A DNA stretch of 17,365 nt from Promethearchaeota archaeon (lineage in GTDB: Archaea > Asgardarchaeota > Lokiarchaeia > Sigyniarchaeales > SOKP01): positions 1-17,365 of the forward strand of contig JAFGGO010000102.1 in assembly GCA_016930515.1 (NCBI GenBank). Reading direction: 5' to 3'. The position numbers and the translations under genes were made by a program. The notes below the pieces were generated by a model. It was not told the DNA's origin and did not search any database. It saw only the letters and a program-made list of their open reading frames with translations. Within the stretch, counting starts at the first letter, position 1, and every line of letters begins with the position of its first letter. Shown piece after piece: positions 1,830 to 17,365 of the stretch.

Positions 1830-3020
1830 TTATCTCTTTAAATTGGCGCTTACCCAATCGTAATAACCTTTCTCGTTGAGTTCCTTTGGAACTTCCTTGA
1901 AGAATTGGGCAGTTATGTCCTTGACGTGTTTTGCCGCAACCGGGTGGAACATCATTGCGAGATCAAGTCCTACTAAAGTAAGTGTCAAAGCGTTGATGAT
2001 TTCCCACATTGGACCCCTGTATTCTCTCAAGCCCCATTCGGGAGCTGTTTTTTCGGACATCCAAGCCTCTCGAGCGCCCCAAGCGTTGGTCGTACCGCCA
2101 CTGATTGGATAGGCAAGGTCTTTTTCGCCAAGCAGTCCAGCCATTCGCATCCTTTGATAAATGCTAAAAGAATATTCCATACCGTAACCAAGCGTTGCAC
2201 ACGTTGGGTCCATGACAATCCTATTTCTGGGAAGTCCTAATTCCACGGCGTCCTTGTTCATCTTGATTTGGTTGTTCAAATCCAAAGAGGTCCAGAGCAA
2301 GCAGTTATGGTCGTACTTGACCGCTAATGGAATGACTTCTTCCCAAGTTGCCTTATCGGCTGCGGAAAGCATCAAGACCTCGCTTTCAGTCGCAGGAGCA
2401 GTTTTTTCGAATAGTTCAATGTCCTTTTTCTTGTTTCCAGAACATCCAATAATGACTGGCACGTCAACAGTTTGCAAGATGTCTTCCAAGAGCTTTACCG
2501 ATTTTGAAACGGGAGCGTCTCCCATGCCAGGATCGATGCTTAAGGAGTGAAATGTAATGAGATCGGCTCCGAACTTGTCAACTGCAAACTTAGCCCATTC
2601 GGGAGGGCTCTTCAACACGCTACCGTACTGTTCCTTGATTGGTTTAGGCGGGGAAAAATCAATGGTGTCGAAAACATCGTATGTGACCGCTGGAGGATTT
2701 GGATTTCGCTTGTCGAGACCTAGAAAATTGTAGAAGGGTGGAACTTTTTCTCCACCAATCGTGACGGTTTTTCCTTTCGATCGAATGAATTGGATCGTTT
2801 CGATCTCGCCAGGGAAATTAACATCAAACTTAAATTTTGCTGGAGTCCACTCGGCTTTTCCTACAGCAGGCAAGCCCATTGATTGAGCCGCCGCTGCTAC
2901 TATACCAGGCAGCATCTGAAATTCGAGATATTCTGCTAAAAGATCAACGTCTTTCAGCTCGATTTCTTCTGTATCTTTCATGAGCTGCGCAAATTTTTTA
3001 CTAAGTTCTTCAAATGGCAT
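1830..3020 (-). CDS. cdhD: Acetyl-CoA decarbonylase/synthase complex subunit delta (corrinoid Fe-S protein small subunit)
   Basis: Motifs TVTIGGEKVPPFY, NPNPP, PxEWAKFAVDKFGADLIT, DVPVIIGCSGNxxKD, RIVMDPTCATLGYGMEYS, NAWGAREAW, EYRGPMWE, MMFHP. Confidence 0.93.
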   Translation of the reverse strand: MPFEELSKKFAQLMKDTEEIELKDVDLLAEYLEFQMLPGIVAAAAQSMGLPAVGKAEWTPAKFKFDVNFPGEIETIQFIRSKGKTVTIGGEKVPPFYNFLGLDKRNPNPPAVTYDVFDTIDFSPPKPIKEQYGSVLKSPPEWAKFAVDKFGADLITFHSLSIDPGMGDAPVSKSVKLLEDILQTVDVPVIIGCSGNKKKDIELFEKTAPATESEVLMLSAADKATWEEVIPLAVKYDHNCLLWTSLDLNNQIKMNKDAVELGLPRNRIVMDPTCATLGYGMEYSFSIYQRMRMAGLLGEKDLAYPISGGTTNAWGAREAWMSEKTAPEWGLREYRGPMWEIINALTLTLVGLDLAMMFHPVAAKHVKDITAQFFKEVPKELNEKGYYDWVSANLKR

Positions 3021-3353: not shown

Positions 3354-4556
3354 ATGAATAAAAAAATCATAGCATTACTTGCGATCGTGGGGATTTGTGC
3401 GGTGAGCATTCCTCTTTCTATTTGGATAATCAGCTTGTCTTCTTCTACCACAACAAATACTCCCGAAATACCTACCATAACGAGTTATTCTCCCCGATCT
3501 TTTCTCAGAGTAAATACATCAGCCACAGAAGAGTTTAGCATCACGACTTCCTTTCCATCGGGCACGCATTTGAGCTATACATGGACCGTTAACGGTACGA
3601 ACCAATCGCTCAACGCAAGCTCCTTTCTATTCGATGCTAACGGCAAGATAAGCGAGGAGGTCTATAAAATCAAGGTTAGCGTTACTGATGGCAATGTCAT
3701 CCTTCAGCATACTTGGACCGTGCTCGTTAGCGACCATAGCGGAGGATTGATAATAGACCACGAATGTGTGGACTGGACGAGCATACCGATAGAATACATA
3801 ACGCTTGCAAAGGAGCTGAATTTCCATTACGCCCATACTTCTCACGGTGGTCAAATAACATCGGGTCTTTACGACCTTCAATCCTTGAATCCAGTCTTCA
3901 ATTTTTCATCCGGAGACCAGACTCTTCCTGATGAAAACGACACTTTATGCATCTTTGACGGTCAGGAAACGGAGGATTACATCACGCCCGATCTTTATTG
4001 GGAGACTTTTCAAGGAATAAAATATACTCAAAATGTAATTAACAATAATCTCGCCTTAAACTTATCAATGTGGAGTTGGTGTACCCAAGTAAATTATTAC
4101 TCTGCAGACTCAATCGAAGAATACTTGGAAGTGATGAACGAATTCGAACAGAACTACTCGAGCAGGGGAGTCAGGTTCATATACATGACCGGAAACTGCG
4201 ATACAGGTGACTTTTCCGAGCACGGAACTCCTGCAGATAGTGGAAATCAGAATCCTGAAGGGGGTTACCAAAGATACCTCAACAACCAGCGGATCAGGGA
4301 ATATTGCTTGCTAAACGACAAGATCTTGTTCGATTTTGGTGATATCGAGTGCTGGCTCTACGATAACGACGGAGATTTTTACGATTACAGTAATTTCAAG
4401 TACGATACGGGTAGCGAAACGATTCTGGTACCAAAAAGACACTGGCAATATAGCAACCAAGACGAAGTGGCCCATACAACGGAAAAAAACTGCGAAAACA
4501 AGGCCAAGGCGTTTTGGTGGATGTTGGCAAAGATCGTTGAGTTGAATTTGGCATAA
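3354..4556 (+). CDS. Membrane-anchored hypothetical protein: N-terminal TM, Ig/PKD-like domain, conserved HTSHGxQ/MWSWC domain (paralog 1)
   Basis: MNKK + hydrophobic helix; Ser/Thr linker; Ig-like motifs YTWTVNG and YKIKVSVTDG; C-terminal domain shared with the next two ORFs (IIDH, HYAHTSHGGQI, MWSWC, FIYMTG, IRxYCxxNDKILFDFxDIE). Confidence 0.8.
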   Translation: MNKKIIALLAIVGICAVSIPLSIWIISLSSSTTTNTPEIPTITSYSPRSFLRVNTSATEEFSITTSFPSGTHLSYTWTVNGTNQSLNASSFLFDANGKISEEVYKIKVSVTDGNVILQHTWTVLVSDHSGGLIIDHECVDWTSIPIEYITLAKELNFHYAHTSHGGQITSGLYDLQSLNPVFNFSSGDQTLPDENDTLCIFDGQETEDYITPDLYWETFQGIKYTQNVINNNLALNLSMWSWCTQVNYYSADSIEEYLEVMNEFEQNYSSRGVRFIYMTGNCDTGDFSEHGTPADSGNQNPEGGYQRYLNNQRIREYCLLNDKILFDFGDIECWLYDNDGDFYDYSNFKYDTGSETILVPKRHWQYSNQDEVAHTTEKNCENKAKAFWWMLAKIVELNLA

Positions 4557-4694
4557 ACACATTTTCAAATTTTATTTATATTTTATATTTTTTTTAATAA
4601 TATAGCTTGAAGGTGGATTTTTGCATAGGATTTATAAAAAATCGTCCATAAATAAATATGACAAGTATTAAGTATAAGGGGTTTGATTTTAGAT

Positions 4695-5570
4695 ATGAAT
4701 AAAAAAGCTATTGTAATTGTAATTATTATCGGAATAGCCGCATCCTTAGGTGGTGTTTATGCTTGGATTTTGTTCTTCAACGCAAACAATAGTAATCAAG
4801 GATCTGGTGGGAACATTAAAATCGATCATAATAGCGCCCATTTAGAAGATTTAAAAGCAATTCCAGAATCCTGGATCATAGAAGCGAAATCGAACTTGCA
4901 CGTGGTTTATTGGCATACCTCACACGGTAGCCAAGTTGTAGATGGAATGTCACCATTGGACGACTTCATGAACGGGAGCGGATTGTACACTTATAACGAC
5001 GGAGGAACCGACGGTGCGCTCGACCTGGTCGATATCAACGGTGCTGATTTAAGCGCAAATCTATACAATTTTAATGAAATCACGCGTACTTTTTTAGATG
5101 ACACAAATAACAACAATATAAATGTTGTCATGTGGTCTTGGTGCGCTTTGCACACATCTCCTGAAGAAATAGGAACATATTTATCCAACATGAGCCAATT
5201 AGAATTGGAATATCCTGGCGTATCGTTCGTGTACATGACGGGGCATCTGGACGGAACTGGGGAAGACGGCCCCGTACATGTTGCCAACCAGATGATAAGG
5301 AATTACTGCTCGGTAAACAATAAGATCCTTTACGATTTTGCCGACATCGAATCTTACGATCCCGACGATAATTACTTCCTTGATCTGGGTGCTACCGATC
5401 ATTGTGATTATGTAGGCGGTAACTGGGCGTTGGAATGGCAAAACACTCACACGATGGGAGTTCATTGGTACAGTTGTAGCTGTATTCACAGTATAGCACT
5501 TAATGGAAATATGAAAGCATATGGCGCTTGGAATCTCTTTGCAAGGTTAGCTGGTTGGTCAGGACCTTGA
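4695..5570 (+). CDS. Membrane-anchored hypothetical protein, HTSHGxQ/MWSWC family (paralog 2)
   Basis: ATG at 4695 preferred over TTG at 4683 because it gives MNKK + TM like the paralogs. Motifs IDH, IPESWIxEAK, WHTSHGSQ, MWSWC, YMTGHLDG, NKILYDFADIESYDPD, CIHS, LAGW. Confidence 0.8.
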   Translation: MNKKAIVIVIIIGIAASLGGVYAWILFFNANNSNQGSGGNIKIDHNSAHLEDLKAIPESWIIEAKSNLHVVYWHTSHGSQVVDGMSPLDDFMNGSGLYTYNDGGTDGALDLVDINGADLSANLYNFNEITRTFLDDTNNNNINVVMWSWCALHTSPEEIGTYLSNMSQLELEYPGVSFVYMTGHLDGTGEDGPVHVANQMIRNYCSVNNKILYDFADIESYDPDDNYFLDLGATDHCDYVGGNWALEWQNTHTMGVHWYSCSCIHSIALNGNMKAYGAWNLFARLAGWSGP

Positions 5571-5758
5571 GTTAATCCTTAAATTCTTTTTATTTTTTAC
5601 TAGATTTAAATATTTAACATGAAATGTTTTTATAAAGTTCTAAATATTTTATTGAATCACTTCATCAATCTAGCCCCAAAAAAAAATCTATAGTTATAAA
5701 TACGATCCATTCTCATTCATATTCAAGGTTATATTTTTGAACGGGGTACGAAATAAAC

Positions 5759-6766
5759 ATGAGTAAAAAATTAACAGCTTTTGTAATTATCGGAATAATT
5801 GCAGCCATAAGCATAAGCGTGCCGGTTTACTTCACCTTTTTCTCTCCAATAGGAACGAACATAAACACAGGAACAAATCCTGATTCAAATCCTGATTCAG
5901 ATCCTAATCCAAATCCAAATCCCAATCCATTACCTGCAGATTTAATCTTTGATCACAAGGACTTGAATATCAACAACATTCCAGAATCGTGGATTGAAGC
6001 GGCAAAGGAAATAAAATTCCATTACGCCCATACCTCTCACGGAGGACAAATTATAAACGGGTTAAGTTATGTCCAATCTGATAATGCGTTATTTAATTAT
6101 TCAAGAGGGTTCAACAACCTTCCTCTTGAAGCAAACACGTTTTGCATGTACGACGGAAACGATTATTGGTCAGGTCCAGACACGGACACTTATATAGAAC
6201 CTCCCATGTATTGGCATAGTCCAGACGGTATAAAGCACACCTACGATGTGATCGACGATAATCCTTCCATCACGCTTTCGATGTGGTGCTGGTGCTGTCA
6301 AGTCAGTTATTATCCGCAGGCGCAAATTCTGGAATATCTCGATCAACTGAATGAATTCGAGCAAAACTATTCAAGCAGGGGAGTCAGGTTCATATACATG
6401 ACCGGAAACGCTGACGATGGAGATTATCCAGAAGGTACGCCTGCCGAAGGGACTAATCAAGATCCTGAAGCGGGTTATCAAAGATACGTTAACAACGAAC
6501 TGATTCGAAATTATTGCGAGGAGAACGATAAGATCTTGTTTGATTTCGCGGATATAGAATGTTGGTTATACCACGAAAATGGAACTGCCTATGATCATAG
6601 TACTTATGATTATGGAACGGGTGATGATACGGTAGTTGTCCCGAAACGCCATTGGCAGTATAGTAATTTAGATGAAACTGCTCACACGACGCAATTGAAC
6701 TGCAAAAATAAAGCTAAAGTCTTTTGGTCAATGTTAGCAACAATCGCTGGATGGGATGGTTCCTAA
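5759..6766 (+). CDS. Membrane-anchored hypothetical protein with Asn-Pro stalk, HTSHGxQ/MWCWC family (paralog 3)
   Basis: MSKK + TM; NPDS/NP repeat linker; motifs IPESWIEAAK, HYAHTSHGGQI, MWCWC, FIYMTG, DKILFDFADIE, DETAHTT, IAGW. Confidence 0.8.
   Translation: MSKKLTAFVIIGIIAAISISVPVYFTFFSPIGTNINTGTNPDSNPDSDPNPNPNPNPLPADLIFDHKDLNINNIPESWIEAAKEIKFHYAHTSHGGQIINGLSYVQSDNALFNYSRGFNNLPLEANTFCMYDGNDYWSGPDTDTYIEPPMYWHSPDGIKHTYDVIDDNPSITLSMWCWCCQVSYYPQAQILEYLDQLNEFEQNYSSRGVRFIYMTGNADDGDYPEGTPAEGTNQDPEAGYQRYVNNELIRNYCEENDKILFDFADIECWLYHENGTAYDHSTYDYGTGDDTVVVPKRHWQYSNLDETAHTTQLNCKNKAKVFWSMLATIAGWDGS
5876..5929 (+). repeat. Intragenic tandem repeat encoding NPDS-NPDS-DP-(NP)4
   Basis: AATCCTGATTCA twice, followed by GATCCT and four AATCCN hexamers. 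Confidence 0.85.
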
Positions 6767-7275
6767 ACTTTATTTCTATTATTTTTTCTTTTTTTTAATA
6801 AATATAAAACACCAATACTTCCAAAAGATGTCAGTATTAGTATTTCTATTGGAAATCCCGGAATTTGGGGGAGGTAATACCTCGTAAGTTCAAGGGTATC
6901 TCCGTCTCGGGTGCTTGTCAACCAAAATACATCCGGACCGTTTGAAACTAATTTCACTTGAACAAAGAACATTCTCGTGTAATTTGTCGTGTAAACTACC
7001 TGAAGTCTATCGAACGAATAGTCTCCGATTATCGCGCTCGAATTTTCGTTGATTTGTTCGCTTGTAGGAGCAGCAATTAACAAATACAATTTAAAATCCC
7101 CATTACCCGAGTGATTCAAGCTAATTTGAACCGTGCTGTTTGCTTCTAAAGAAAACACATAAAACGCCGAACTTCCCGTGTATAAATTCTCAGGTTGTGC
7201 GTCTGCCCGTGCGAGAGTAGCGGGAAGCAATAAAAAAGCGATGGTAACTAGCAAGAGGTATTTGTATTTTTTCAT
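6763..7275 (-). CDS. Secreted/surface protein with PPC-like beta domain and Loki-CTERM/PGF-type C-terminal sorting signal
   Basis: Signal peptide MKKYKYLLLVTIAFLLLPATLARA (ATG at 7275; the ORF track starts at 7287). PPC-like motif VQISL...GDFKLYL. C-terminus IPGFP + hydrophobic helix + KKRK basic tail. Confidence 0.75.
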   Translation of the reverse strand: MKKYKYLLLVTIAFLLLPATLARADAQPENLYTGSSAFYVFSLEANSTVQISLNHSGNGDFKLYLLIAAPTSEQINENSSAIIGDYSFDRLQVVYTTNYTRMFFVQVKLVSNGPDVFWLTSTRDGDTLELTRYYLPQIPGFPIEILILTSFGSIGVLYLLKKRKNNRNKV

Positions 7276-7329
7276 CGGTTCATGCAAGAACTAAACAATT
7301 TCTTGATCATAATATGAGCTTACTATTTT

Positions 7330-7836
7330 TTAACTTCTTGCAATAATTTTTTTTGCGTAATTCACAAGTCCTTCGGAGGCGATGATCTCTTGCAAAAACT
7401 TGGGCATTTTATTGATCGTGAACTGTTTATTTGAGGTTAAATTTGAAACGAGTCCTTTTTCAAAATCGATTTCAAGTTCGTCCCCCGTATTTACTTCTTG
7501 AATCTCCTTGAATTCCACGATCGGTAATCCAATGTTTATTGCGTTTCTAAAGAATATTCTCGCAAAGGAAGGCGCCAATACGCATTGTATTCCCGCGGTT
7601 TTTATCGCCAGAGGGGCTTGTTCCCTACTCGATCCACTTCCAAAATTAGAATCTGCTACAATTATGGAAATACCCTCGTTTTTGACTTTTGAATTAAAGT
7701 TTGGATCGAGGTCTTCCATGCAATGTTCTGCCAAAAATTTAGGGTCTGATTTTACCAAATAGCGTGCAGGAATGATCAAGTCCGTATTTATATTTTTTTC
7801 CTCGTATTTTATCACTTTTCCTTTCAAATTAATCAC
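7330..7836 (-). CDS. leuD: 3-isopropylmalate dehydratase small subunit (archaeal-type LeuD/HacB family)
   Basis: [41 protein letters not shown]. The YLV loop is LeuD-like rather than the HacB-like YLR. Confidence 0.9.
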
Positions 7837-7862
7837 TCTTGAAATAATATCGTCCGAAATAA

Positions 7863-9134
7863 TTATATATAATCGGGAGAGGTAATATATCCCTTGATCG
7901 CAGAGGCAGCAGCAATTGCAGGACCTGCCAAGTATACCTCGCTCTCTACATGACCCATTCTTCCAACGAAATTTCGATTAGTGGTTGAAACTGCTTTTTC
8001 TCCCGCAGCAAGAATCCCCATAAAACCACCTAAACAAGGACCACATGTAGGAGTTGAAACTATTGCCCCGGCGTCAATAAAAATTTCAAGCAAGCCTTCT
8101 TTCAAGGCATCCAGGTATATTTTTGGCGTTCCAGGTATTACGATGCACCGGACATTAGAATTTACTTTTTGATTTTTAAAAATTTTTGCGGCCACCCTCA
8201 AGTCTTCCAAGCGACCATTCGTACAAGACCCAATGACGGATTGATCGATTTCAACCTTCATTGCGTCAACTTCTGAAATTGGTTTGCTATTTTCGGGCAA
8301 ATGAGGAAGCGCAACTTGAGGCTCTAGATTCGAACATTCGAATTCAATGATATCTATATATTCTGCGTCCTTATCGCTAAAGTACGGTTTTTGGTGTGTA
8401 TATGCCCAATCCAGATATTCTGCCGTTTTTCCATCAGGAGCAATGATTCCGTTTTTCCCTCCAGCCTCGACTGCCATGTTGCACATCGTCAGCCGACCGG
8501 ACACGGATAAATTGTCGATTACCTCTCCCGTGAACTCCATTGCCTTATAGGTTGCGCCATCAACACCAATCTCACCAATTGTGTATAATATCAAGTCTTT
8601 ACCAGAGACATATTCTCCGAGTTTTCCAGTATATACGAATTTTATTGACTCCGGGATTTTAAACCAGCACTTTCCTAAAACCATTGCAACTCCCAAATCG
8701 GTCGAACCAACACCAGTAGAAAAAGCACCAAGGGCACCATAAGTACAAGTGTGAGAATCAGCCCCGATAAAAACATCTCCCGGAGACACCAAACCTTGTT
8801 CTGGAATGAGACAATGCTCGATTCCAACCCGACCTTGTTCGAAATAATGCTCGATCTGGTGCTCGTGAGCGAACTCCCTAAGCATCTTACACTGCTCTGC
8901 AGAAGCAACATCCTTGTTCGGAGCAAAATGATCGGGAGTCAGCACGATCTTTGACTTGTCAAAAACACCTTTTCCCGTTCCTTTAACTATCTCGTTAAAT
9001 ACCTTTATGGAAATTGGTGCTGTTATATCGTTTGCCAAGCATTTATCAATGCGCGCTAAGACGAAATCGCCTGCCGAAGGATTATTTTCCTCGCAATGAT
9101 CTCTCAATATCTTTTCCGTAATTGTAAAACCCAT
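7863..9134 (-). CDS. leuC: 3-isopropylmalate dehydratase large subunit (LeuC/HacA aconitase family)
   Basis: [69 protein letters not shown]. Confidence 0.92.
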
Positions 9135-9294: not shown

Positions 9295-10242
9295 CTAAAC
9301 CATTTCAATTTTTAAAATAGGAATGATCATCTCTTGTAGTATTTGATCTGATTCTGCCCACAAGTAAAAAAGCTTGTTCTTAATAGGAACAATCACAGCT
9401 TTTCCGATCTCTCTAAAGTTACTATCTTCAATATTCACCATATCGTTCTCCTCCACATTGACCTTGGTAAAGTATTCCGATTTTCGAAATTCCTCCATGC
9501 TAGTTCCCATCTTGAAAACGGGGAATATTTTCTTATCAATTTCTATAGTATCATCGAGAAATTGAAATTCCTTTATATCAAAAAAATACGATTTCATTTC
9601 TTTAGTTTTCTTTTTCAACCGATTAACAAAAAATTGTAGAGCGTTTTTATCTTTTTCAATGTTGTAATCAAAAATGAACAAGTGATAACTATTATCCTTC
9701 AAGTATCGTGCGTGTGGAGCGTAGAGCATGCAGTCGTAAACTACATAATCTAAGAGAGGCATCTCCTTTCTAACTATGAGAGATTTGACCTTCCAACCTT
9801 TATCCATGAGCGGTTTAAAATATGGTTTGATAAAATCGTCAATGTCTTCGTATTTTAATTCAATACCATTAGAATAAATTTTATCCAATTCATTGGAGTG
9901 TTCGATCTTTAATTCCTTAAGAAATTCAAGTTCTTTCCGTTTTTTAGATATCACTCTTTCATAGTAATCGGTAGGTTTCGTTGCAATAAATATCGTGGCG
10001 TTTTTTGATGTATCTGCTTGACCCCTTTCCATGACTACCTTCATATTGACAAGTTTTCGTAGTGTGGAATATATCGTCGTTCTTTTCATATTTCCTGGAA
10101 GTGCATGGATGAGTTCCTTAACAATGCTCCCCCTATTTCCCGACTTAATCAGCGTGAAATATACTAAAGCTTCCTTATAATTCAAACCTGTATTTTGAAA
10201 TATTTGCACGAAATTTTTTTCTTTCTGAAACCGACTCATCAT
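9295..10242 (-). CDS. TrmB-like helix-turn-helix transcriptional regulator
   Basis: N-terminal GLNYKEALVYFTLI...KRTTIYSTLRKLV...FIATKP matches the TrmB winged-HTH pattern, followed by a coiled-coil. The C-terminal domain was not recognised. Confidence 0.72.
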   Translation of the reverse strand: MMSRFQKEKNFVQIFQNTGLNYKEALVYFTLIKSGNRGSIVKELIHALPGNMKRTTIYSTLRKLVNMKVVMERGQADTSKNATIFIATKPTDYYERVISKKRKELEFLKELKIEHSNELDKIYSNGIELKYEDIDDFIKPYFKPLMDKGWKVKSLIVRKEMPLLDYVVYDCMLYAPHARYLKDNSYHLFIFDYNIEKDKNALQFFVNRLKKKTKEMKSYFFDIKEFQFLDDTIEIDKKIFPVFKMGTSMEEFRKSEYFTKVNVEENDMVNIEDSNFREIGKAVIVPIKNKLFYLWAESDQILQEMIIPILKIEMV

Positions 10243-10375: not shown

Positions 10376-11257
10376 TTGAGTGATTTGAATCTTGAAAACA
10401 TTAGTTTTGAAAAATATCATGGACTAGGAAACGATTATATCCTCCTTAACGATATTGAATTGGCCATTCCAGAAGAAAAAAAAGGCGAACTCGCCAAGCA
10501 ATTATGTCGATTCCATTTTTCAATAGGAGCAGATGGCGTGATATTTGTCTGTAGCTCAAAAAAAGCAGACATTAAAATGAGGATTTTTAACGCCGATGGA
10601 TCAGAAGCAGAAATGTGTGGGAATGGAATTCGATGCTTCTCAAAACACATATACGAGCGAAATATCGTAAAAAAAGACCTTATTCAAGTTGAAACTCTCA
10701 AGATCGTCACGATAGCCGAATTAAATGTGCGGGACGGCGAAGTAAAAACCGTAAAAATCGACATGGGTCCACCAATATTGGAGTGCGATAAAATACCTGT
10801 CAAGACAAATAAAAATACGGGAAAATGCTTAAACGAAGAAATTGCTGTCTTAGATAAAATTTTCAATTTTTCAGCAGTATCGATGGGTAACCCCCACGCG
10901 GTCATTTTCGTGAAGAAACAACTCACAAACGACGAATTAAATCGATATGGCAATCTCATCGAGTCCCATCATTATTTTCCTAACAAGATAAATGTTGAAT
11001 TTGTCACCATAAAATCAAAAACAGAAGCCAATCTTCGAGTATTCGAAAGAGGAGTAGGGATCACGAATTCGTGCGGAACGGGTACATGCGCTGCCGTGGT
11101 TGCAGGAACTATTTTAGGGATATTTGAAAAGAAGGCTCCCGTGATTGTACACAATGATGGAGGAGTCCTTATAATAACCTATACGGGGAAAACTGTATAC
11201 ATGGAAGGACCAGTTGAGCGAGTATTTGTCGGGACTATCGAAAAATTAACAATTTAA
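10376..11257 (+). CDS. dapF: Diaminopimelate epimerase
   Basis: FEKYHGLGNDY, IGADG, IFNADGSEAEMCGNGIRC, VSMGNPHAV, INVEFV, RVFERGVG, SCGTG. Both catalytic Cys present; TTG start. Confidence 0.95.
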   Translation: MSDLNLENISFEKYHGLGNDYILLNDIELAIPEEKKGELAKQLCRFHFSIGADGVIFVCSSKKADIKMRIFNADGSEAEMCGNGIRCFSKHIYERNIVKKDLIQVETLKIVTIAELNVRDGEVKTVKIDMGPPILECDKIPVKTNKNTGKCLNEEIAVLDKIFNFSAVSMGNPHAVIFVKKQLTNDELNRYGNLIESHHYFPNKINVEFVTIKSKTEANLRVFERGVGITNSCGTGTCAAVVAGTILGIFEKKAPVIVHNDGGVLIITYTGKTVYMEGPVERVFVGTIEKLTI

Positions 11258-11268
11258 AGGGAATCAAT

Positions 11269-12582
11269 ATGAAATACGAAAAGTGGTTAAAAAACAAGGA
11301 ACTAGAATATCTGGAAGACACCCTGCATTTCGGAGGCATGAATGTGATCGATTTAGCAGAAAGATACGGAACACCCGTTTACATTATCAACGAACAGCTC
11401 CTGAGAAAAAGGTACAAAGAACTTAAATCGTTGTTAGATAATACTTATAAGAAAAATGAGATCCATTACGCAGTGAAAGCGAATTCAAACCTTTCAGTTC
11501 TCAGTATCTTGAACTCAGAGGGTGCGTCCTTCGATTGTTCGTCCGTAGGAGAGATTCACGCCTGTTTTAAGGCAGGAATCAAGCCAGAAAAGATATTTTA
11601 TACGGGAAACATGTTCACGAACGAGGATTTTAAATACGCAATTGAAAATAATGTCCGCATAAATTTAGATAGTGTAAGTCAGATATCGCGCTTAGCACGA
11701 ATGTACGATGGGTTGGACAACAAGAAACAAACTTTTTCAGTGCGTTTTAATCCTGAATTCGGAGCAGGTCATCATCCACACACTATCACGGGAGGGAGAA
11801 ACATCAAATTTGGTATATTAGAAGAGCAAATGGTCGAGGCATACTCTCTCGCCCGTGAATTGGGATTTGAAACTTTTGGAACCCACATGCATATAGGTTC
11901 TGGTATTATTGATGCTCAAGATTACCAAAAAGCCACAGAAAAATATCTATCGACCATAACCAGAGTTTCTGAAACACTTGGAATCTCTTTCGACTTCGTT
12001 GATTTTGGAGGTGGCCTTGGAATCCCTTATAGACCCGATCAAGACCCCCTCGATTTGCAGGCTTACAATAACATCGTCATAGATCAATTTAAGACATTAG
12101 TTAATCGAGGTACGATCGGAGAACCTACACTAAAAATCGAGCCCGGGCGATATATCGCAGGTGAAGCGAGCGTGTTGATAACCCAGATTAATACAATCAA
12201 GAATAACGGATATAAACTATTTGCTGGCGTGAATGCGGGTTTTAACACGCTCGTAAGACCTACCATGTATGGATCCTATCATCATATTGTCCCTTGTGTT
12301 AAAACTAACGGTTCGAATATTCTCTCATACGATATTGTAGGTCCTATTTGCGAGTCTGGAGACGTTCTAGGGAAAGAAAGAGGAATTACAGAGCTCAAAG
12401 AAGGAGATTATTTAGCAGTCCTCGATGCAGGAGCGTACGGATTTACCATGAGTAGCCCGTATAATTCAAGACCGAGACCTGCTGAAATACTCATTAATAT
12501 GGGGAATTCTTACCTCGTTCGGAAAGCAGAATCTTACGACGACCTTCTCGAGCTCCAAAAAATACCAGATTATTTGAAATGA
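11269..12582 (+). CDS. lysA: Diaminopimelate decarboxylase
   Basis: YGTPVY, HYAVKAN (PLP Lys), KFG, HMHIGS, DFGGGLG, IEPGR, GPICESGD, AGAYG, SPYNSRPRPAE. Confidence 0.95.
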   Translation: MKYEKWLKNKELEYLEDTLHFGGMNVIDLAERYGTPVYIINEQLLRKRYKELKSLLDNTYKKNEIHYAVKANSNLSVLSILNSEGASFDCSSVGEIHACFKAGIKPEKIFYTGNMFTNEDFKYAIENNVRINLDSVSQISRLARMYDGLDNKKQTFSVRFNPEFGAGHHPHTITGGRNIKFGILEEQMVEAYSLARELGFETFGTHMHIGSGIIDAQDYQKATEKYLSTITRVSETLGISFDFVDFGGGLGIPYRPDQDPLDLQAYNNIVIDQFKTLVNRGTIGEPTLKIEPGRYIAGEASVLITQINTIKNNGYKLFAGVNAGFNTLVRPTMYGSYHHIVPCVKTNGSNILSYDIVGPICESGDVLGKERGITELKEGDYLAVLDAGAYGFTMSSPYNSRPRPAEILINMGNSYLVRKAESYDDLLELQKIPDYLK

Positions 12583-12814: not shown

Positions 12815-13636
12815 TCATAACCCTAAAACTTCTTTCATGCTGTATACCTTTACATCCTTAGCTTTTGCCAAGAATTTTACAGCCGTGATCGCTCCCGAAG
12901 CAAGACAATTTTGACTATGAACTTGGTGCTTGAGTTCTATACGTTCGCCATTTCCCGCATATAAAACCAAGTGATCGCCTACTATGTCGCCTGCTCGAAT
13001 AGCGTGTATTCCGATCTCCTTGCGGGCGCCTATTTCTCTCTTGTTTGGACCTTTATCCCTGCCATATTTCGCTACACTATCAATGTCCACCCCAATTGCT
13101 TCAGATATCGCCTTTCCAACAGTTAAAGCCGTCCCCGAAGGCGAATCCACTTTTCGATGGTGATGTGCCTCCACTATCTCAATGTCCCAGTCTGCCAAGT
13201 ACTTGGCGAGTTGAGCCGCCACCTCAAAAAATACATTCACACCAGTAGCCATATTGGACGATATTACTGCAGGGGTTTTCTTTTCGTTAACGAGTAAGGT
13301 AAATTCTTCTATAAACGCTCTAGAAAGCGCAGTCGTTCCTATCACGCATCGAATATTAGATTTCACGCAAATAATGCAATTTCTTTCGGTGGCATCCGCT
13401 ATCGTAAAATCAATTGCGACATCAGGTCTTGTTCTTTCAATTATTTCCTGGAGATTGTTGACGTCTTCTATCTTGATTTGATTAGAGCTTTTAATTCCCA
13501 ATAGAAGTGCAAGTTCGTTTCCGATGTTGTTAATATCGCAAGCGGCAACAACCTTTATTTCCTCGTCTTCCAAGGCGAGTCTGCTAATGAGTCTTCCCAT
13601 CGAACCCGTAGGTCCAATTATCAATAATTTAATCAT
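12815..13636 (-). CDS. dapB: 4-hydroxy-tetrahydrodipicolinate reductase
   Basis: IIGPTGSMG Rossmann motif, DVAIDFT, VIGTT, SSNMATGVN, EIVEAHHHRKVDSPSGTA, IRAGDIVGDH. Confidence 0.95.
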   Translation of the reverse strand: MIKLLIIGPTGSMGRLISRLALEDEEIKVVAACDINNIGNELALLLGIKSSNQIKIEDVNNLQEIIERTRPDVAIDFTIADATERNCIICVKSNIRCVIGTTALSRAFIEEFTLLVNEKKTPAVISSNMATGVNVFFEVAAQLAKYLADWDIEIVEAHHHRKVDSPSGTALTVGKAISEAIGVDIDSVAKYGRDKGPNKREIGARKEIGIHAIRAGDIVGDHLVLYAGNGERIELKHQVHSQNCLASGAITAVKFLAKAKDVKVYSMKEVLGL

Positions 13637-13674: not shown

Positions 13675-14583
13675 TTAAATGAGCTTGAGTTTTTCCAACT
13701 CTTTTCTGATCTTGGCTTGAGTGTCTTCCAATGGGGGTGAAAGCGGGAGCCGTAATCGTCTGCTAGCAATACCCATCAATTCTGCGGCGTATTTGACAGG
13801 CGTCGGATTGGGATCAACAAATAAGACATTAAAAAAGTCGTATAATTCAAGTTGTATTCCACGGGCTTTAGTCCAATTGCCTGCTAACATGGTATCCATG
13901 AATTCTACCATTCTTGCTGGAATCAAATTCGAGGCCACGCTAATAACCCCTTTTCCACCTAGTGCCGTGATGTGAAATGTTAACGAATCGTCTCCGCTGA
14001 GCACTATGAAATCGTCAGGTGTCATTTTAATGACCTTGGTGATTTGATCGATATTTCCAGAGGCGCATTTCATTCCCACGATGTTATCCTTAGTCCTTGC
14101 AAGCTTGGCAACGGTTTCTGGTTCCAAATTTCGAACGGTTCGAGAAGGTACATTGTATAATATTATTGGCAACGATATGGAATCCGCAACGGCAGAAAAG
14201 TGTTCGATAAGCGAATGCTGCGCGGGCTTATTGTAGTAGGGAACTACCGTTAATACACCATCGGCACCAGCTTTTTCTGCATATTCACAGAGAGAAACCG
14301 CCTCTTTCGTTGAGTTACTTCCAGCACCGGCTAAAACAAACGGCTTTTTCTCACTCTTTTTCGCTTCGTCTACCGTTATATCAATCGCTCGATGGTGCTC
14401 TTCGTGCGATAATGTCGGGCTTTCGCCCGTTGTACCCATCGTCAAGGGCAAGCAACCGTTCTCGATTTGAAATCGAATGAACTCCCGGTATTTATCCTCG
14501 TCGATCGAAAGGTCTTCCCTAAATGGCGTTATCATTGCCGTAATCACGCCTTTAATTTCGTTTATTCGGTCAAGTTTAGACAT
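13675..14583 (-). CDS. dapA: 4-hydroxy-tetrahydrodipicolinate synthase
   Basis: TAMITPF, GTTGES, AGAGSNST, PYYNKP, LYNVPSRT, GMK (Schiff-base Lys), SGDD, GVISVASN, NPTPVK; operonic with dapB. Confidence 0.95.
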   Translation of the reverse strand: MSKLDRINEIKGVITAMITPFREDLSIDEDKYREFIRFQIENGCLPLTMGTTGESPTLSHEEHHRAIDITVDEAKKSEKKPFVLAGAGSNSTKEAVSLCEYAEKAGADGVLTVVPYYNKPAQHSLIEHFSAVADSISLPIILYNVPSRTVRNLEPETVAKLARTKDNIVGMKCASGNIDQITKVIKMTPDDFIVLSGDDSLTFHITALGGKGVISVASNLIPARMVEFMDTMLAGNWTKARGIQLELYDFFNVLFVDPNPTPVKYAAELMGIASRRLRLPLSPPLEDTQAKIRKELEKLKLI

Positions 14584-14769: not shown

Positions 14770-15462
14770 TTAAAAAAAATCTGATAAACTACTACTAACT
14801 TGTTGTTCAATGAAATATAATGTCTTTTGTTTGTCAAGTATTTTTGTTAGTAAGTTAAATTTTTCCATAAGATCGATGTATTTAGAGACTGTATTTATAT
14901 GCATTTGAAGAGCATTAGCAAGTTCCGTTTTAGAAACGCCATGATCGTTTTCATTAAGATATTGAATGATCTTTTTTGTTCTTTTTTTTCTAATAACATA
15001 CATGAGTTTAGCGTTCTTTATCGAGATAGTGGAACTAAAATAAATCTCGTGGTTATCAAAAGTTACCTTTTTTAGAAATCCAAATTCAACAAGAGATTTT
15101 AAGTGCCATGTTACTACATGATTTGGGAAGCCTGTACCTTCCAATATTTTGAGAAAATATGAACCCGGATGTTTCATGACGAATTCATAAATATAATTTC
15201 TCTTTTGGTTTTTCAATATATCATTTCTGATGAGTTTTGAACCTTCAACGATCATTCTTTTATCGATAAGCGATTGTAAATGCTTGAAAATGCCTGTATT
15301 GTTGATATCCACGGACATTAACTTGAATTTCGAATGAATATAAGATAGGATCTTTTTTGTATCAAAAAAGCGATTTTTATCCATATATTCCAATATAACA
15401 TTGAGAACGACTTCTTCTTGTTCTGAAAGGTTAGATGGAATTGAAAGTATCGAATCACACAT
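14770..15462 (-). CDS. Multi-winged-helix DNA-binding protein / transcriptional regulator
   Basis: ILKNQKRNYIYEFVMKHPG...VTWHLKSLVEFGFL and a second HTH SKTELANALQMHINTVSKYIDLM. ATG at 15462 lies 1 nt after the upstream stop (TAA-A-ATG); alternative GTG at 15474. Confidence 0.78.
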   Translation of the reverse strand: MCDSILSIPSNLSEQEEVVLNVILEYMDKNRFFDTKKILSYIHSKFKLMSVDINNTGIFKHLQSLIDKRMIVEGSKLIRNDILKNQKRNYIYEFVMKHPGSYFLKILEGTGFPNHVVTWHLKSLVEFGFLKKVTFDNHEIYFSSTISIKNAKLMYVIRKKRTKKIIQYLNENDHGVSKTELANALQMHINTVSKYIDLMEKFNLLTKILDKQKTLYFIEQQVSSSLSDFF

Positions 15463-15463
15463 T

Positions 15464-17365
15464 TTAGTTACCACGTCCTCTAATGGATTGATTTTTTCTC
15501 ATTTCTTCAATGTATTCCATCCGCTTGTGTGGTGGAAGAGCTAACATTTCTTCAATAAAAGAAATTTTATCTTCCTCATCCCAGTCAAAATCATTAACTC
15601 CGTCGATAAAATCTTTAGAAAGAGCCGTTAAATTTATTTCACCCATATTTAGTAAAGTTTCAATGCCATCATGTCTTTGAAATAAGGAAATAGAATCAAA
15701 ATCGGTTTTAATATTCTTTAATTTCAATGGATTATTACAGACCCAGCAATTTTCGTTCTTTTCTGCCAGGATCAACGCACATTCGTAACAATACTTTGCC
15801 TTACAATGAGGACATACATAAATAATACCTTCTATAGGGCCCCTATGTACTTGACAATTTAACTCGTTTTCAATAATTCCAACTTCCGATTCTAATTGTG
15901 TATTTTTTGAGTATTGATTATTATAGGGCTTGGATTGCTCTACCTTGGTAAAATTATTTATTTTTCCATATTTATTCAACGAATCAGGTTTTGGATCTTT
16001 TAAATTGGATTTTAAAGGAAAGACACGATGTTGAAATTTCGATTTTGTATTGATTAGAGGTTCTCTTGCTTTTTTCTTTCGTTTAGAAAGAAAAATATAT
16101 CCAGTAGGAATTGATACTCCAATGATACTTAAAAATATTATGACAATTATAATAAATCTCATATCCTGTAAACTATTTGATAAACTGAATTCTATCAAGC
16201 AGAAATGTGAGAGTTCATTTGTCGTTATTTCAATATAATTCCCAGATTCATTAAGTTGAGTTGTTAATGAAATCCAAGAGGTTTGAGCTGTGTCATAATG
16301 AAATATACGCAAGTTTTTCGCATTATCTACTCTATTCGGGTCGAAAAAAAAACGAATTGTAATATTTTCCAAAATCGTATCATTCTCCCGCAAATTAGTA
16401 TCCAAAACGGAGAAGTAATAGTAAAATAGCGCCCCAGAGAAGGGTATCGGATTAATAGAAGGGTAACAAGATTGGTTTCGACCAATAAGTAAAGTTCCTT
16501 CAGCATTTAATCTTATTATAATATATAGACCATATTGATTTCTGAAATCATAAATTCGAGTAATAAGTCCCTGATGAGAGGAATTTGCATTTATAGTGAA
16601 ATAAACAATATCAGAAGCGAAATAAGTTCCCAAACTACTGTTACCAAATACTTGAACAAAGTGAATACCACAAGCAGGCATAACTATTGTGGAGTTGCCA
16701 TAGATAGTTTTGTTTTCAACACCATCCAATGAATATGCTAACCACTCAAGCTCCTTTTTACTTTGAAAACTGAGAAGCAACCCTTCATTTAAGTTATCAC
16801 CAACATTATAGTTAGAATCCCAGGAAAATCCGAAGGCATCCCAAAAACCATAGAAAATATCTGCATTTCCTGAAGTGAAGAGAATAATATTATCAACATC
16901 TAGAATAGTACTCATTGAAAATTCACCAAATTCCATCCCATTAATATAAACCCTCCATGTATATTGATCTGATAAGCCCTCGTAAGAGTTACCAAAAGAG
17001 CAGCGAAATCTAATGGATATATGATAAAATTGATTAGATACATGAGAGCCAAATCCATTTGGATTCCAAGAACCGTTCCAATATGTCCATTTTCCATCAC
17101 ATCTCATCTTCAACCCAAAAATATCGGTGTTTCCGCTTTTGAACATTATATTAAGATTTGGAGCAGAAGATTGATAGTTATCATAACCCATATAAAATTC
17201 AATCGAACCATGTGATTGTGAGCCGAAAAAGCACGATAGACTTGCATTATGATCTGTATTTAATTTATTACGGGTCACCACCTGGTAATTAGCTCCAATC
17301 CCGCTGTATCGCAAGTAAAACGAGGATGGAAACGTTCCGACTGCGTAAGATTCGAAATCTTCTTC
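15464..17365 (-). CDS. Large single-pass membrane protein (5'-truncated): lectin/ConA-like and Ig-like ectodomains, TM helix, cytoplasmic RING-like zinc finger
   Basis: The frame stays open to the window edge (EEDFESYAVGTFPSSFY precedes the TTG at 17314). TM at 16088-16156 followed by SKRKKK. C-x2-H-x10-C-x2-C-x4-C-x2-C-x10-C-x2-C at 15737-15856. Acidic helical C-terminal domain. Confidence 0.75.
   Translation of the reverse strand, partial: EEDFESYAVGTFPSSFYLRYSGIGANYQVVTRNKLNTDHNASLSCFFGSQSHGSIEFYMGYDNYQSSAPNLNIMFKSGNTDIFGLKMRCDGKWTYWNGSWNPNGFGSHVSNQFYHISIRFRCSFGNSYEGLSDQYTWRVYINGMEFGEFSMSTILDVDNIILFTSGNADIFYGFWDAFGFSWDSNYNVGDNLNEGLLLSFQSKKELEWLAYSLDGVENKTIYGNSTIVMPACGIHFVQVFGNSSLGTYFASDIVYFTINANSSHQGLITRIYDFRNQYGLYIIIRLNAEGTLLIGRNQSCYPSINPIPFSGALFYYYFSVLDTNLRENDTILENITIRFFFDPNRVDNAKNLRIFHYDTAQTSWISLTTQLNESGNYIEITTNELSHFCLIEFSLSNSLQDMRFIIIVIIFLSIIGVSIPTGYIFLSKRKKKAREPLINTKSKFQHRVFPLKSNLKDPKPDSLNKYGKINNFTKVEQSKPYNNQYSKNTQLESEVGIIENELNCQVHRGPIEGIIYVCPHCKAKYCYECALILAEKNENCWVCNNPLKLKNIKTDFDSISLFQRHDGIETLLNMGEINLTALSKDFIDGVNDFDWDEEDKISFIEEMLALPPHKRMEYIEEMRKNQSIRGRGN

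Follow-up and report, generated by a model that had tools for sequence, protein, structure and literature searches.

A membrane protein that holds a soluble transcription protein is a familiar arrangement, seen in pairs of anti-sigma and extracytoplasmic function (ECF) sigma factors such as RseA-sigmaE and RsiW-SigW, and in Mlc-PtsG. Elsewhere the regulator is itself a membrane protein: ToxR, TcpP and CadC are transmembrane transcription regulators, a class whose survey makes no mention of Asgard archaea (Demey et al., 2023; PMC10269533). Here we analyse a gene pair from an Asgard genome of 4.0 Mb in 190 contigs. The window, 17,365 nucleotides (nt) long, is the entire contig C155 (JAFGGO010000102.1); on its reverse strand lie the gene for a membrane receptor, P0001, and directly downstream of it the gene for a protein of three winged-helix (WH) domains, P0002. 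Both belong to a large Lokiarchaeial family. We lean, without great firmness, towards reading the pair as a two-gene transmembrane signalling unit, in which the receptor holds the WH regulator through a cytoplasmic tail and a RING-type finger is an accessory. In the literature, including the survey cited above, surveys of ESCRT proteins and the Asgard ubiquitin papers, we found no description of the tail/WH pairing or of the finger family.

Architecture of the receptor

A preliminary description of this DNA had presented P0001 as a membrane protein with one transmembrane helix, an eight-ligand finger and an acidic helical tail, and translation, hydropathy and the structural model bear this out (Table 1). 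The open reading frame (ORF; 15467-17365, reverse strand) encodes 633 residues, remains open to the contig end, where its first residues are EEDFESY, and is truncated there at its 5' end. Directly after the transmembrane helix comes a basic stop-transfer sequence, KRKKKAR. The linker that follows the helix is about 75 residues long and basic (isoelectric point (pI) 10.0), with no recognisable domain. Residues 546-633 have a pI of 4.8 and are modelled as four helices at a pLDDT above 90. The junction of the two genes agrees with the spacing given earlier: a single nucleotide separates the receptor stop from the ATG of the WH gene, and a start at the alternative GTG (15474) would make the genes overlap by 11 nt. 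Both the database record and the alignment of homologues favour the ATG.

The tail is paired with winged-helix genes

Hidden Markov models (HMMs), one each for finger, tail and WH protein, were built from our own alignments and run on all ORFs of the genome, giving 20 tail matches, that in P0001 at residues 573-627 (E 2e-23), and 20 full-length three-WH matches. Of the 20 tails, 16 have a WH module either in the same polypeptide or encoded on the same strand no more than 300 nt away. Single-polypeptide fusions occur on contigs C27, C45, C98 and C172, in the order signal peptide, ectodomain, transmembrane helix, tail and three WH domains, and these fused paralogues show tethering to be part of the design.

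The finger is present in about one third of the tail-bearing receptors. Finger-free tail receptors (on C3, C47, C151, C174 and C186) retain their WH partner, and about 15 finger-only receptors in this genome have no WH gene as a same-strand neighbour. A cluster on C157 is a partial exception, in that a finger-only gene divergently adjoins a WH gene, whose partner is a tail-bearing protein of 289 residues. Because tail and WH protein occur together with or without the finger, and finger-only receptors are without a WH partner, the coupling runs through the tail. The preliminary description had coupled the finger to the WH protein, a proposal at odds with this evidence and with the predicted interface, to which no finger residue belongs. 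Finger and tail/WH are independent modules.

Beyond this genome, the pair was kept at all seven informative loci, those of P0003 (on three contigs), P0065, P0078, P0079, P0124, P0134 and P0155; the locus of P0161 was left out as uninformative because its contig is too short. The intergenic gaps are 2-95 nt, and the downstream proteins are orthologues of P0002 (36% identity, E 3e-51). The ectodomains differ from receptor to receptor (LamG-like, a WD40 propeller in P0124, and others), and P0155 has Cys at the second finger ligand. Counting these seven loci and the 16 places in our genome, the pairing is conserved. Within the genome, moreover, the more two tails differ, the more their WH partners tend to differ (Mantel r 0.65, a value that none of 5000 permutations reached), which suggests that the pairs duplicate and evolve as units. 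Among the genomes sampled, 67 of 68 from the same family, 7 of 7 from the same order and 2 of 2 others from the same class carry the WH family at E<=1e-20; weaker matches occur in several other families of the phylum. One closed genome of the same order, a single contig of 4.4 Mb, holds at least four copies of the system.

The arrangement of modules varies. In P0065, P0078 and P0079 (loci L005, L006 and L008) two tandem copies of the tail follow the finger, and another large surface-protein gene lies directly upstream of the receptor gene. On C32 (1185-5288, forward strand) a receptor of 1368 residues carries its tail (residues 1213-1264) before its finger (residues 1312-1367), so that the two modules can stand in either order; immediately upstream of this gene is a partial WH gene.

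A predicted complex between the tail and P0002

The complex was predicted from a finger-plus-tail alignment and a WH alignment, both our own. The model, a check that the preliminary description had proposed, places the tail on WH1-WH2 with an ipSAE of 0.74 (0.76, 0.74 and 0.74 in separate runs), compared with 0.01 for the best of three controls. The ipSAE mark is reached by 58 of 80 solved complexes and by 2 of 110 mismatched pairs, counts that are rough here as our own alignments were used. The runs share at least 88% of their contacts, with a pLDDT of at least 84 for the partners.

Confident contacts of the receptor all fall within the tail (residues 558-630) and none within the finger. On the WH protein they fall within residues 20-123, that is, on WH1 and WH2, and WH3 is left free in the model. 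The interface includes the most conserved positions of both partners: T580, W595, F603 and M622 of the tail, and R31, IVEGSKL (71-77), N114, H115 and the invariant W119 of the WH protein (numbered from the ATG). The predicted complex thus supports binding between tail and WH protein. When compared with known folds the tail, which was not folded alone, gave generic helical matches only, at Z of about 5 (for example, a polyketide synthase (PKS) docking domain).

The three-winged-helix protein

P0002 is modelled as three WH domains, with a pLDDT of 89 and a pTM of 0.81. WH1 and WH2 bear near-invariant motifs, IVEGSKL and NH..WHL, and WH3 is the most variable domain (mean column entropy 1.29, 1.39 and 1.71 for WH1, WH2 and WH3); the stronger conservation of WH1 and WH2 would be explained by the tail contacts that lie on them. 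A VIA structural scan with WH3 returned ArsR/SmtB, MarR and related DNA-binding domains at Z 10-12 and a root-mean-square deviation (rmsd) of 1.4-3 Å. WH3 also gives weak matches to Pfam HTH_11 and HTH_24 at 4e-5 and NCBIfam ArsR/SmtB at 2e-5. The match to NF033788 has 24 bits, below the cut-off of 55, and the three-WH architecture is unlike that of the ArsR/SmtB or MarR families. From the likeness of WH3 to ArsR/MarR proteins and the basic character of the WH proteins (pI 9-9.8), we infer that P0002 probably binds DNA through WH3.

An identity of P0002 as an ESCRT-II protein was considered and rejected. PF05871 matches it only at E 0.081, and searches of the genome with PF04157 and PF05871 find only the genuine ESCRT-II genes on C85, no WH paralogue reaching those families.

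A finger of predicted RING fold

The finger of P0001, CQVH-x10-CPHC-x4-CYEC-x10-CWVC at residues 504-543, has as ligands C504, H507, C518, C521, C526, C529, C540 and C543. In its spacing, C-x2-H-x10-C-x2-C-x4-C-x2-C-x10-C-x2-C, the gap of 4 between ligands 4 and 5 exceeds the canonical 2-3. All eight ligands are kept in 41 of 41 aligned relatives; the seven cysteines are invariant, and the unusual second ligand that the preliminary description had pointed out is His or, rarely, Cys. P0003, P0065, P0078 and P0079 carry the identical eight ligands, including His at position 2. A phmmer search with finger plus tail (residues 470-633) finds 706 representative clusters at E<=1e-3, where the finger very often stands at the extreme C-terminus, in proteins of all sizes. 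With such recurrence, the finger is no accidental array of cysteines.

AlphaFold, given our own alignment, models the finger at a pLDDT of about 95. In a Foldseek search of the PDB with this model the top matches are all RING or U-box domains (MDM2, RING1B, TRIM21, TRAF6 and Prp19), with probabilities of 0.9-0.99 and E values of only 0.04-0.15 for so short a domain. The best VIA match is TRIM37 (3lrq; Z 6.5, rmsd 2.3 Å over 57 residues); others are Nse1, RNF146, RING1B, TFIIH p44 and CesA, and among the top 50 matches that cover the finger almost all are RING or U-box domains (Z 5-6.5, rmsd 1.4-2.4 Å, 48-57 residues). On the strength of this predicted fold, which matches RING and U-box domains only, we accept the finger as a RING-fold binuclear finger of a distinct subfamily. 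The preliminary description had likened it to prokaryotic RING family 1 (Prok-RING_1) or PHD-like fingers, and of this the RING fold stands; for P0001, the PHD and Prok-RING_1 matches do not.

Prok-RING_1 (PF14446) has no match to P0001 at E<=1 and matches 4 of 41 relatives weakly, at best at 7.5e-4. A PHD or FYVE reading was likewise rejected: although FYVE_2 gives weak Pfam matches, the 50 best fold matches include neither a PHD nor a FYVE chain. Curated RING models leave P0001 below cut-off: of all Pfam and NCBIfam models only C1_4 (TFIIH) gives a match, at E 0.003-0.005 and 17-18 bits against a cut-off of 28.9, with nothing for the ectodomain or the tail. A sequence search of the PDB with the cytoplasmic part of P0001 found weak RING matches only (best E 0.066). 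Across the finger family, zf-C3HC4_3 matches 11 of 41 members (best 2.8e-5) and C1_4 matches 12 of 41, all weakly.

The genome holds about 22 copies of the finger. The positions that contact E2 in canonical RINGs stay hydrophobic in them (V/I before the His in 22/22, L/I/V in the helix in 22/22, the W of CWxC in 20/22), but the linchpin Arg/Lys after the last Cys occurs in 4/22 copies and in 2/41 family members, the residue being mostly N, G or D. The finger may have ligase activity; its hydrophobic E2-contact positions are conserved and its linchpin is mostly absent. Small soluble finger proteins of 62-139 residues are also encoded, on C32, C45, C48 and C111.

The ectodomain and the missing N-terminus

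Ten N-x-S/T sequons lie in the ectodomain and three after the transmembrane helix. Residues 4-260 form a module common to more than 100 Asgard surface proteins. Residues 1-265 of P0001 have no Pfam match of their own, and the lectin-like label of the ectodomain comes from homologues: of 30 aligned homologous segments (32-39% identical), 13 match Laminin_G_3, of the concanavalin A (ConA)-like lectin superfamily, with a best E of 1e-9. Through these homologues the ectodomain would be lectin-like. A PDB profile search with the ectodomain alignment gave no matches, and an ESM Atlas feature search with the ectodomain gave uninformative scores of at most 0.80.

Named homologues of P0001 come from Promethearchaeota/Lokiarchaeota, Hodarchaeota, Thorarchaeota and Hermodarchaeota. 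The closest full-length relative is P0003 (1057 residues, 37% identity). Because the alignment begins only at residue 434 of P0003, which carries a second copy of the ectodomain module upstream of the aligned part, about 390 residues may be missing from P0001. Retrieval of this N-terminus, proposed in the preliminary description, yielded a candidate, a 157-residue ORF at C12:1-471 (reverse strand) that has a signal/transmembrane start, runs off the contig end and is 36% identical over 115 residues to the N-terminus of P0003; it cannot be tied to P0001 rather than to a paralogue.

Ubiquitin genes and the genomic neighbourhood

The ubiquitin system presupposed by the preliminary description is present, as the genome encodes E1 (C26:3123-4370), at least three E2-like proteins (with E2 genes on C26, C71 and C187), JAB and ubiquitin-like (UBL) proteins. 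A ubiquitin cluster occupies positions 290-8377 of C26 (locus L018). Along one strand it encodes a protein of six transmembrane helices that ends in a different RING-like finger, then JAB, E2, E1 and a UBL protein. On the divergent side a three-WH paralogue is followed by a protein with two transmembrane helices, a tail (E 3e-9) and a C-terminal UBL domain lacking a terminal GG; a second UBL gene and a gene for a coiled-coil protein lie on this side as well. The WH gene and the gene for the transmembrane-tail-UBL protein adjoin in at least ten further genomes from four genera. The tail/WH module holds a conserved place in the ubiquitin cluster. In our genome, no CxVH finger-family gene lies on a contig with an E2 or ubiquitin match.

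The neighbours of P0001 and P0002 in the window are lysine-biosynthesis genes with no evident link to the pair: dapF (10376-11257) and a lysA-type decarboxylase gene (11269-12582) on the forward strand, and dapB (12815-13636) and dapA (13675-14583) on the reverse strand, downstream of the pair. Five ORFs of 174-400 residues (window positions 3354-7287 and 9295-10242) have no Pfam match at E<=1e-5 and are flanked by a CdhD-like gene (1830-3020) and an aconitase-family large/small subunit pair (7330-9134), both on the reverse strand.

Table 1. Features of the receptor and winged-helix genes, in window positions
Feature	Position	Strand	Basis or remark
P0001 ectodomain, residues 1-395	16181..17365	-	Sequons; homologous segments matching Laminin_G_3
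P0001 single transmembrane helix, residues 402-422	16100..16162	-	Hydropathy peak 2.58, strongest hydrophobic stretch
RING-like binuclear zinc finger, P0001 residues 498-550	15716..15874	-	Ligand conservation and model fold
Acidic four-helix docking tail (predicted), P0001 residues 558-630	15476..15694	-	Tail HMM and predicted interface
Receptor stop codon, TAA	15464-15466	-	1 nt before the ATG (15462) of the WH gene
Three-winged-helix protein P0002	14770..15462	-	230 residues from the ATG, 234 from the GTG at 15474; pI 9.4
WH1 and WH2 of P0002, predicted docking platform	15022..15423	-	Interface residues 20-123; conservation
WH3 of P0002, ArsR/SmtB/MarR-like, candidate DNA-binding output	14782..15021	-	Fold and weak sequence matches

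Discussion

These observations are consistent with a model in which the receptor exposes a glycosylated, lectin-like ectodomain outside the cell and the two genes are probably co-transcribed. The acidic four-helix tail would dock onto WH1-WH2 of the basic P0002 and hold it at the membrane, with WH3 left unbound as the likely output domain that binds DNA. Signals reaching the ectodomain would then alter this hold, and with it transcription, through release, oligomerisation or cleavage. The finger of RING type, an optional accessory in this model, may dimerise receptors or recruit an E2.

Several points weigh against this model. In the fused paralogues only cleavage could free the WH module from the membrane, and simple sequestration followed by release cannot therefore be the general rule. 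The complex of tail and WH protein is a prediction that close paralogues would probably also satisfy, and it does not imply partner specificity. The recognition helix of WH3 (..NTV.KY..) is fairly conserved among paralogues, which would suit one shared target better than 20 distinct operators. In a Foldseek search with the whole P0002 model, the tandem-WH proteins Rpc34, ESCRT-II Vps22 and UFL1/DDRGK1 appear at E values of 4e-5 to 8e-4 and TM-scores of 0.2-0.36, and these are scaffolds that do not read DNA sequence; TFIIIC and SelB are listed too. At such low TM-scores we take the matches to reflect a shared arrangement, not family membership. The promoter region of P0001 lies beyond the contig end.

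The finger and the ubiquitin genes suggest a different reading, in which the receptor acts as a membrane-bound RING E3 ubiquitin ligase on the docked WH regulator, its substrate, with ligand binding switching ubiquitylation and hence degradation or release. The RING-like fold, nearest to MDM2/IAP-type and C4C4 RINGs, would suit such a role, as would the conserved hydrophobics at the E2-contact positions, the E1, E2-like, JAB and UBL proteins of the genome, and a tail that would set the WH protein beside the RING; a tail-UBL/WH pair even sits inside the ubiquitin cluster, conserved in those ten or more genomes of four genera. However, two thirds of the tail/WH pairs are without a finger, the finger-only receptors are without a same-strand WH partner, the linchpin is kept in just 4 of 22 genome copies and 2 of 41 family members, and P0001 falls below the cut-off of every Pfam RING model. 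Nor does any finger-family gene share a contig with E2 or ubiquitin genes, the conserved hydrophobics could simply be core residues, and RING folds that do not act as ligases are numerous, with Nse1 and TFIIH p44 as examples from the matches above. We therefore regard this reading as unlikely. More specifically, the preliminary description had proposed a relay of the signal by ubiquitylation or sequestration of the regulator. Sequestration, or tethering, is the better supported half, given the tail-WH pairing and the predicted interface; ubiquitylation is unsupported so far. That receptors combine a working RING ligase with the WH docking site and relay an extracellular signal by ubiquitylating the docked regulator seems to us quite doubtful; a ubiquitylation relay has only the finger fold and the separate tail/WH copy of the ubiquitin cluster as its basis.

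The same tandem-WH matches raise the question of whether P0002 is a regulator at all, or instead an adaptor comparable to ESCRT-II, UFL1-DDRGK1 or cullin WH domains, linking receptors to ubiquitin/ESCRT-type sorting or to another cytoplasmic machine. Foldseek lists Vps22 (3cuq_A, E 3.4e-4) and UFL1/DDRGK1 (8b9x, E 8e-4), WH1 and WH2 serve protein binding in the predicted complex, the paralogous pair of the ubiquitin cluster carries a UBL domain, and the WH3 helix, fairly conserved among paralogues, would not be out of place in an adaptor. These two matches, though, have TM-scores of 0.2-0.26 and share with P0002 no more than a tandem-WH arrangement. The genome has its own ESCRT-II genes on C85, whose families no WH paralogue reaches, WH3 matches DNA-binding ArsR/MarR domains far better (Z 10-12, rmsd 1.4-3 Å), and the WH proteins are strongly basic, all of which makes an adaptor rather improbable. 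Still less probable, in our estimate, is that no signalling takes place, P0001 being a surface adhesin or cell-envelope protein whose cytoplasmic modules serve only to anchor or cluster it, with nucleoid or cytoskeleton as possible points of attachment. Its ectodomain family is common to very many Asgard surface proteins that have no cytoplasmic modules, and the neighbours are lysine-biosynthesis genes, with no ligand, kinase or protease encoded nearby; yet many unrelated ectodomains joined to one conserved output, with a dedicated soluble partner that diverges in step, are the hallmark of a receptor family.

In the signalling unit that we favour, many different ectodomains would be set on one cytoplasmic output, a modular receptor design that pairs a new small docking domain with a dedicated three-WH protein and, in one third of cases, adds a eukaryote-type RING finger to the same tail. 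If the WH protein is a transcription factor, the roughly 20 copies in the genome would be a major way for these cells to sense their surroundings, and, in the lineage from which eukaryotes arose, a concrete and testable case of signalling from membrane to DNA. What archaeal ubiquitin is used for could be learned from the conserved copy in the ubiquitin cluster. Were a ubiquitylation relay true, it would be a prokaryotic pathway from receptor to E3 to transcription factor, assembled from components that eukaryotes employ, with the tail-UBL/WH pair as its tie to the ubiquitin operon. With at least four copies of the system in the closed genome of the same order, culture experiments may be feasible.

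Comparison with described systems

Three kinds of described protein share individual features with the pair. Type-I receptors such as RNF43/ZNRF3 and the PA-TM-RING proteins RNF13/GRAIL likewise have an extracellular binding domain and a cytoplasmic RING-fold finger. P0001, however, has no PA domain, its finger is C-H-C6 with x4 between ligands 4 and 5 and not RING-H2, the linchpin is mostly absent in the finger family, and P0001 has a docking tail and a WH partner in addition. For the finger itself, MDM2/IAP-type RINGs (zf-C3HC4_3) and C1_4 of TFIIH p44 are the best matches in fold and sequence. It resembles them in its eight ligands and in the helix that comes after ligand 6, and it ends in C-x-x-C-x-x-P-I/L as MDM2 does; finger-only relatives carry the domain at the extreme C-terminus as MDM2/IAP-type RINGs do; it differs in having His as ligand 2, CWxC in place of CPxC and no conserved cationic linchpin, and P0001 stays below the Pfam cut-off. 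P0002 resembles Rpc34, Vps22/Vps25 and UFL1-DDRGK1 in its consecutive WH domains, some of them for protein binding, but it departs from Rpc34, Vps22 and UFL1 in structure (TM-scores 0.2-0.36) and in a WH3 that is nearest to ArsR/MarR DNA binders.

As a whole, the system comes closer to regulators that act from the membrane. In ToxR, TcpP and CadC, as here, a single-pass protein links an extracytoplasmic sensor to a cytoplasmic winged-helix module. The fused paralogues follow the ToxR-type logic of a transmembrane helix and a WH module in one polypeptide; P0001 and P0002, encoded by separate genes, do not combine a transmembrane helix and a DNA-binding domain in this way. The differences from the ToxR type are that the Asgard proteins are type I with a C-terminal output, have three WH domains compared with one of OmpR type, and share no sequence homology with it; in P0001/P0002, moreover, the output is a separate protein on a docking domain, with a RING-type finger inserted. 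In this split form the closest parallel is with anti-sigma/sigma pairs, which are co-transcribed, as the two Asgard genes probably are, use a small cytoplasmic holding domain and occur as many paralogous pairs per genome. The folds are unrelated, fused forms occur in the Asgard system and are not known among the anti-sigma/sigma pairs, and release on a signal is something that we infer for the Asgard proteins; to our knowledge, archaea have no sigma factors. The system thus resembles the transmembrane transcription regulators and, in its split form, the anti-sigma/sigma pairs, an analogy in which the same kind of link between membrane and regulator appears to be built from unrelated parts, with a RING-type finger as an optional addition.

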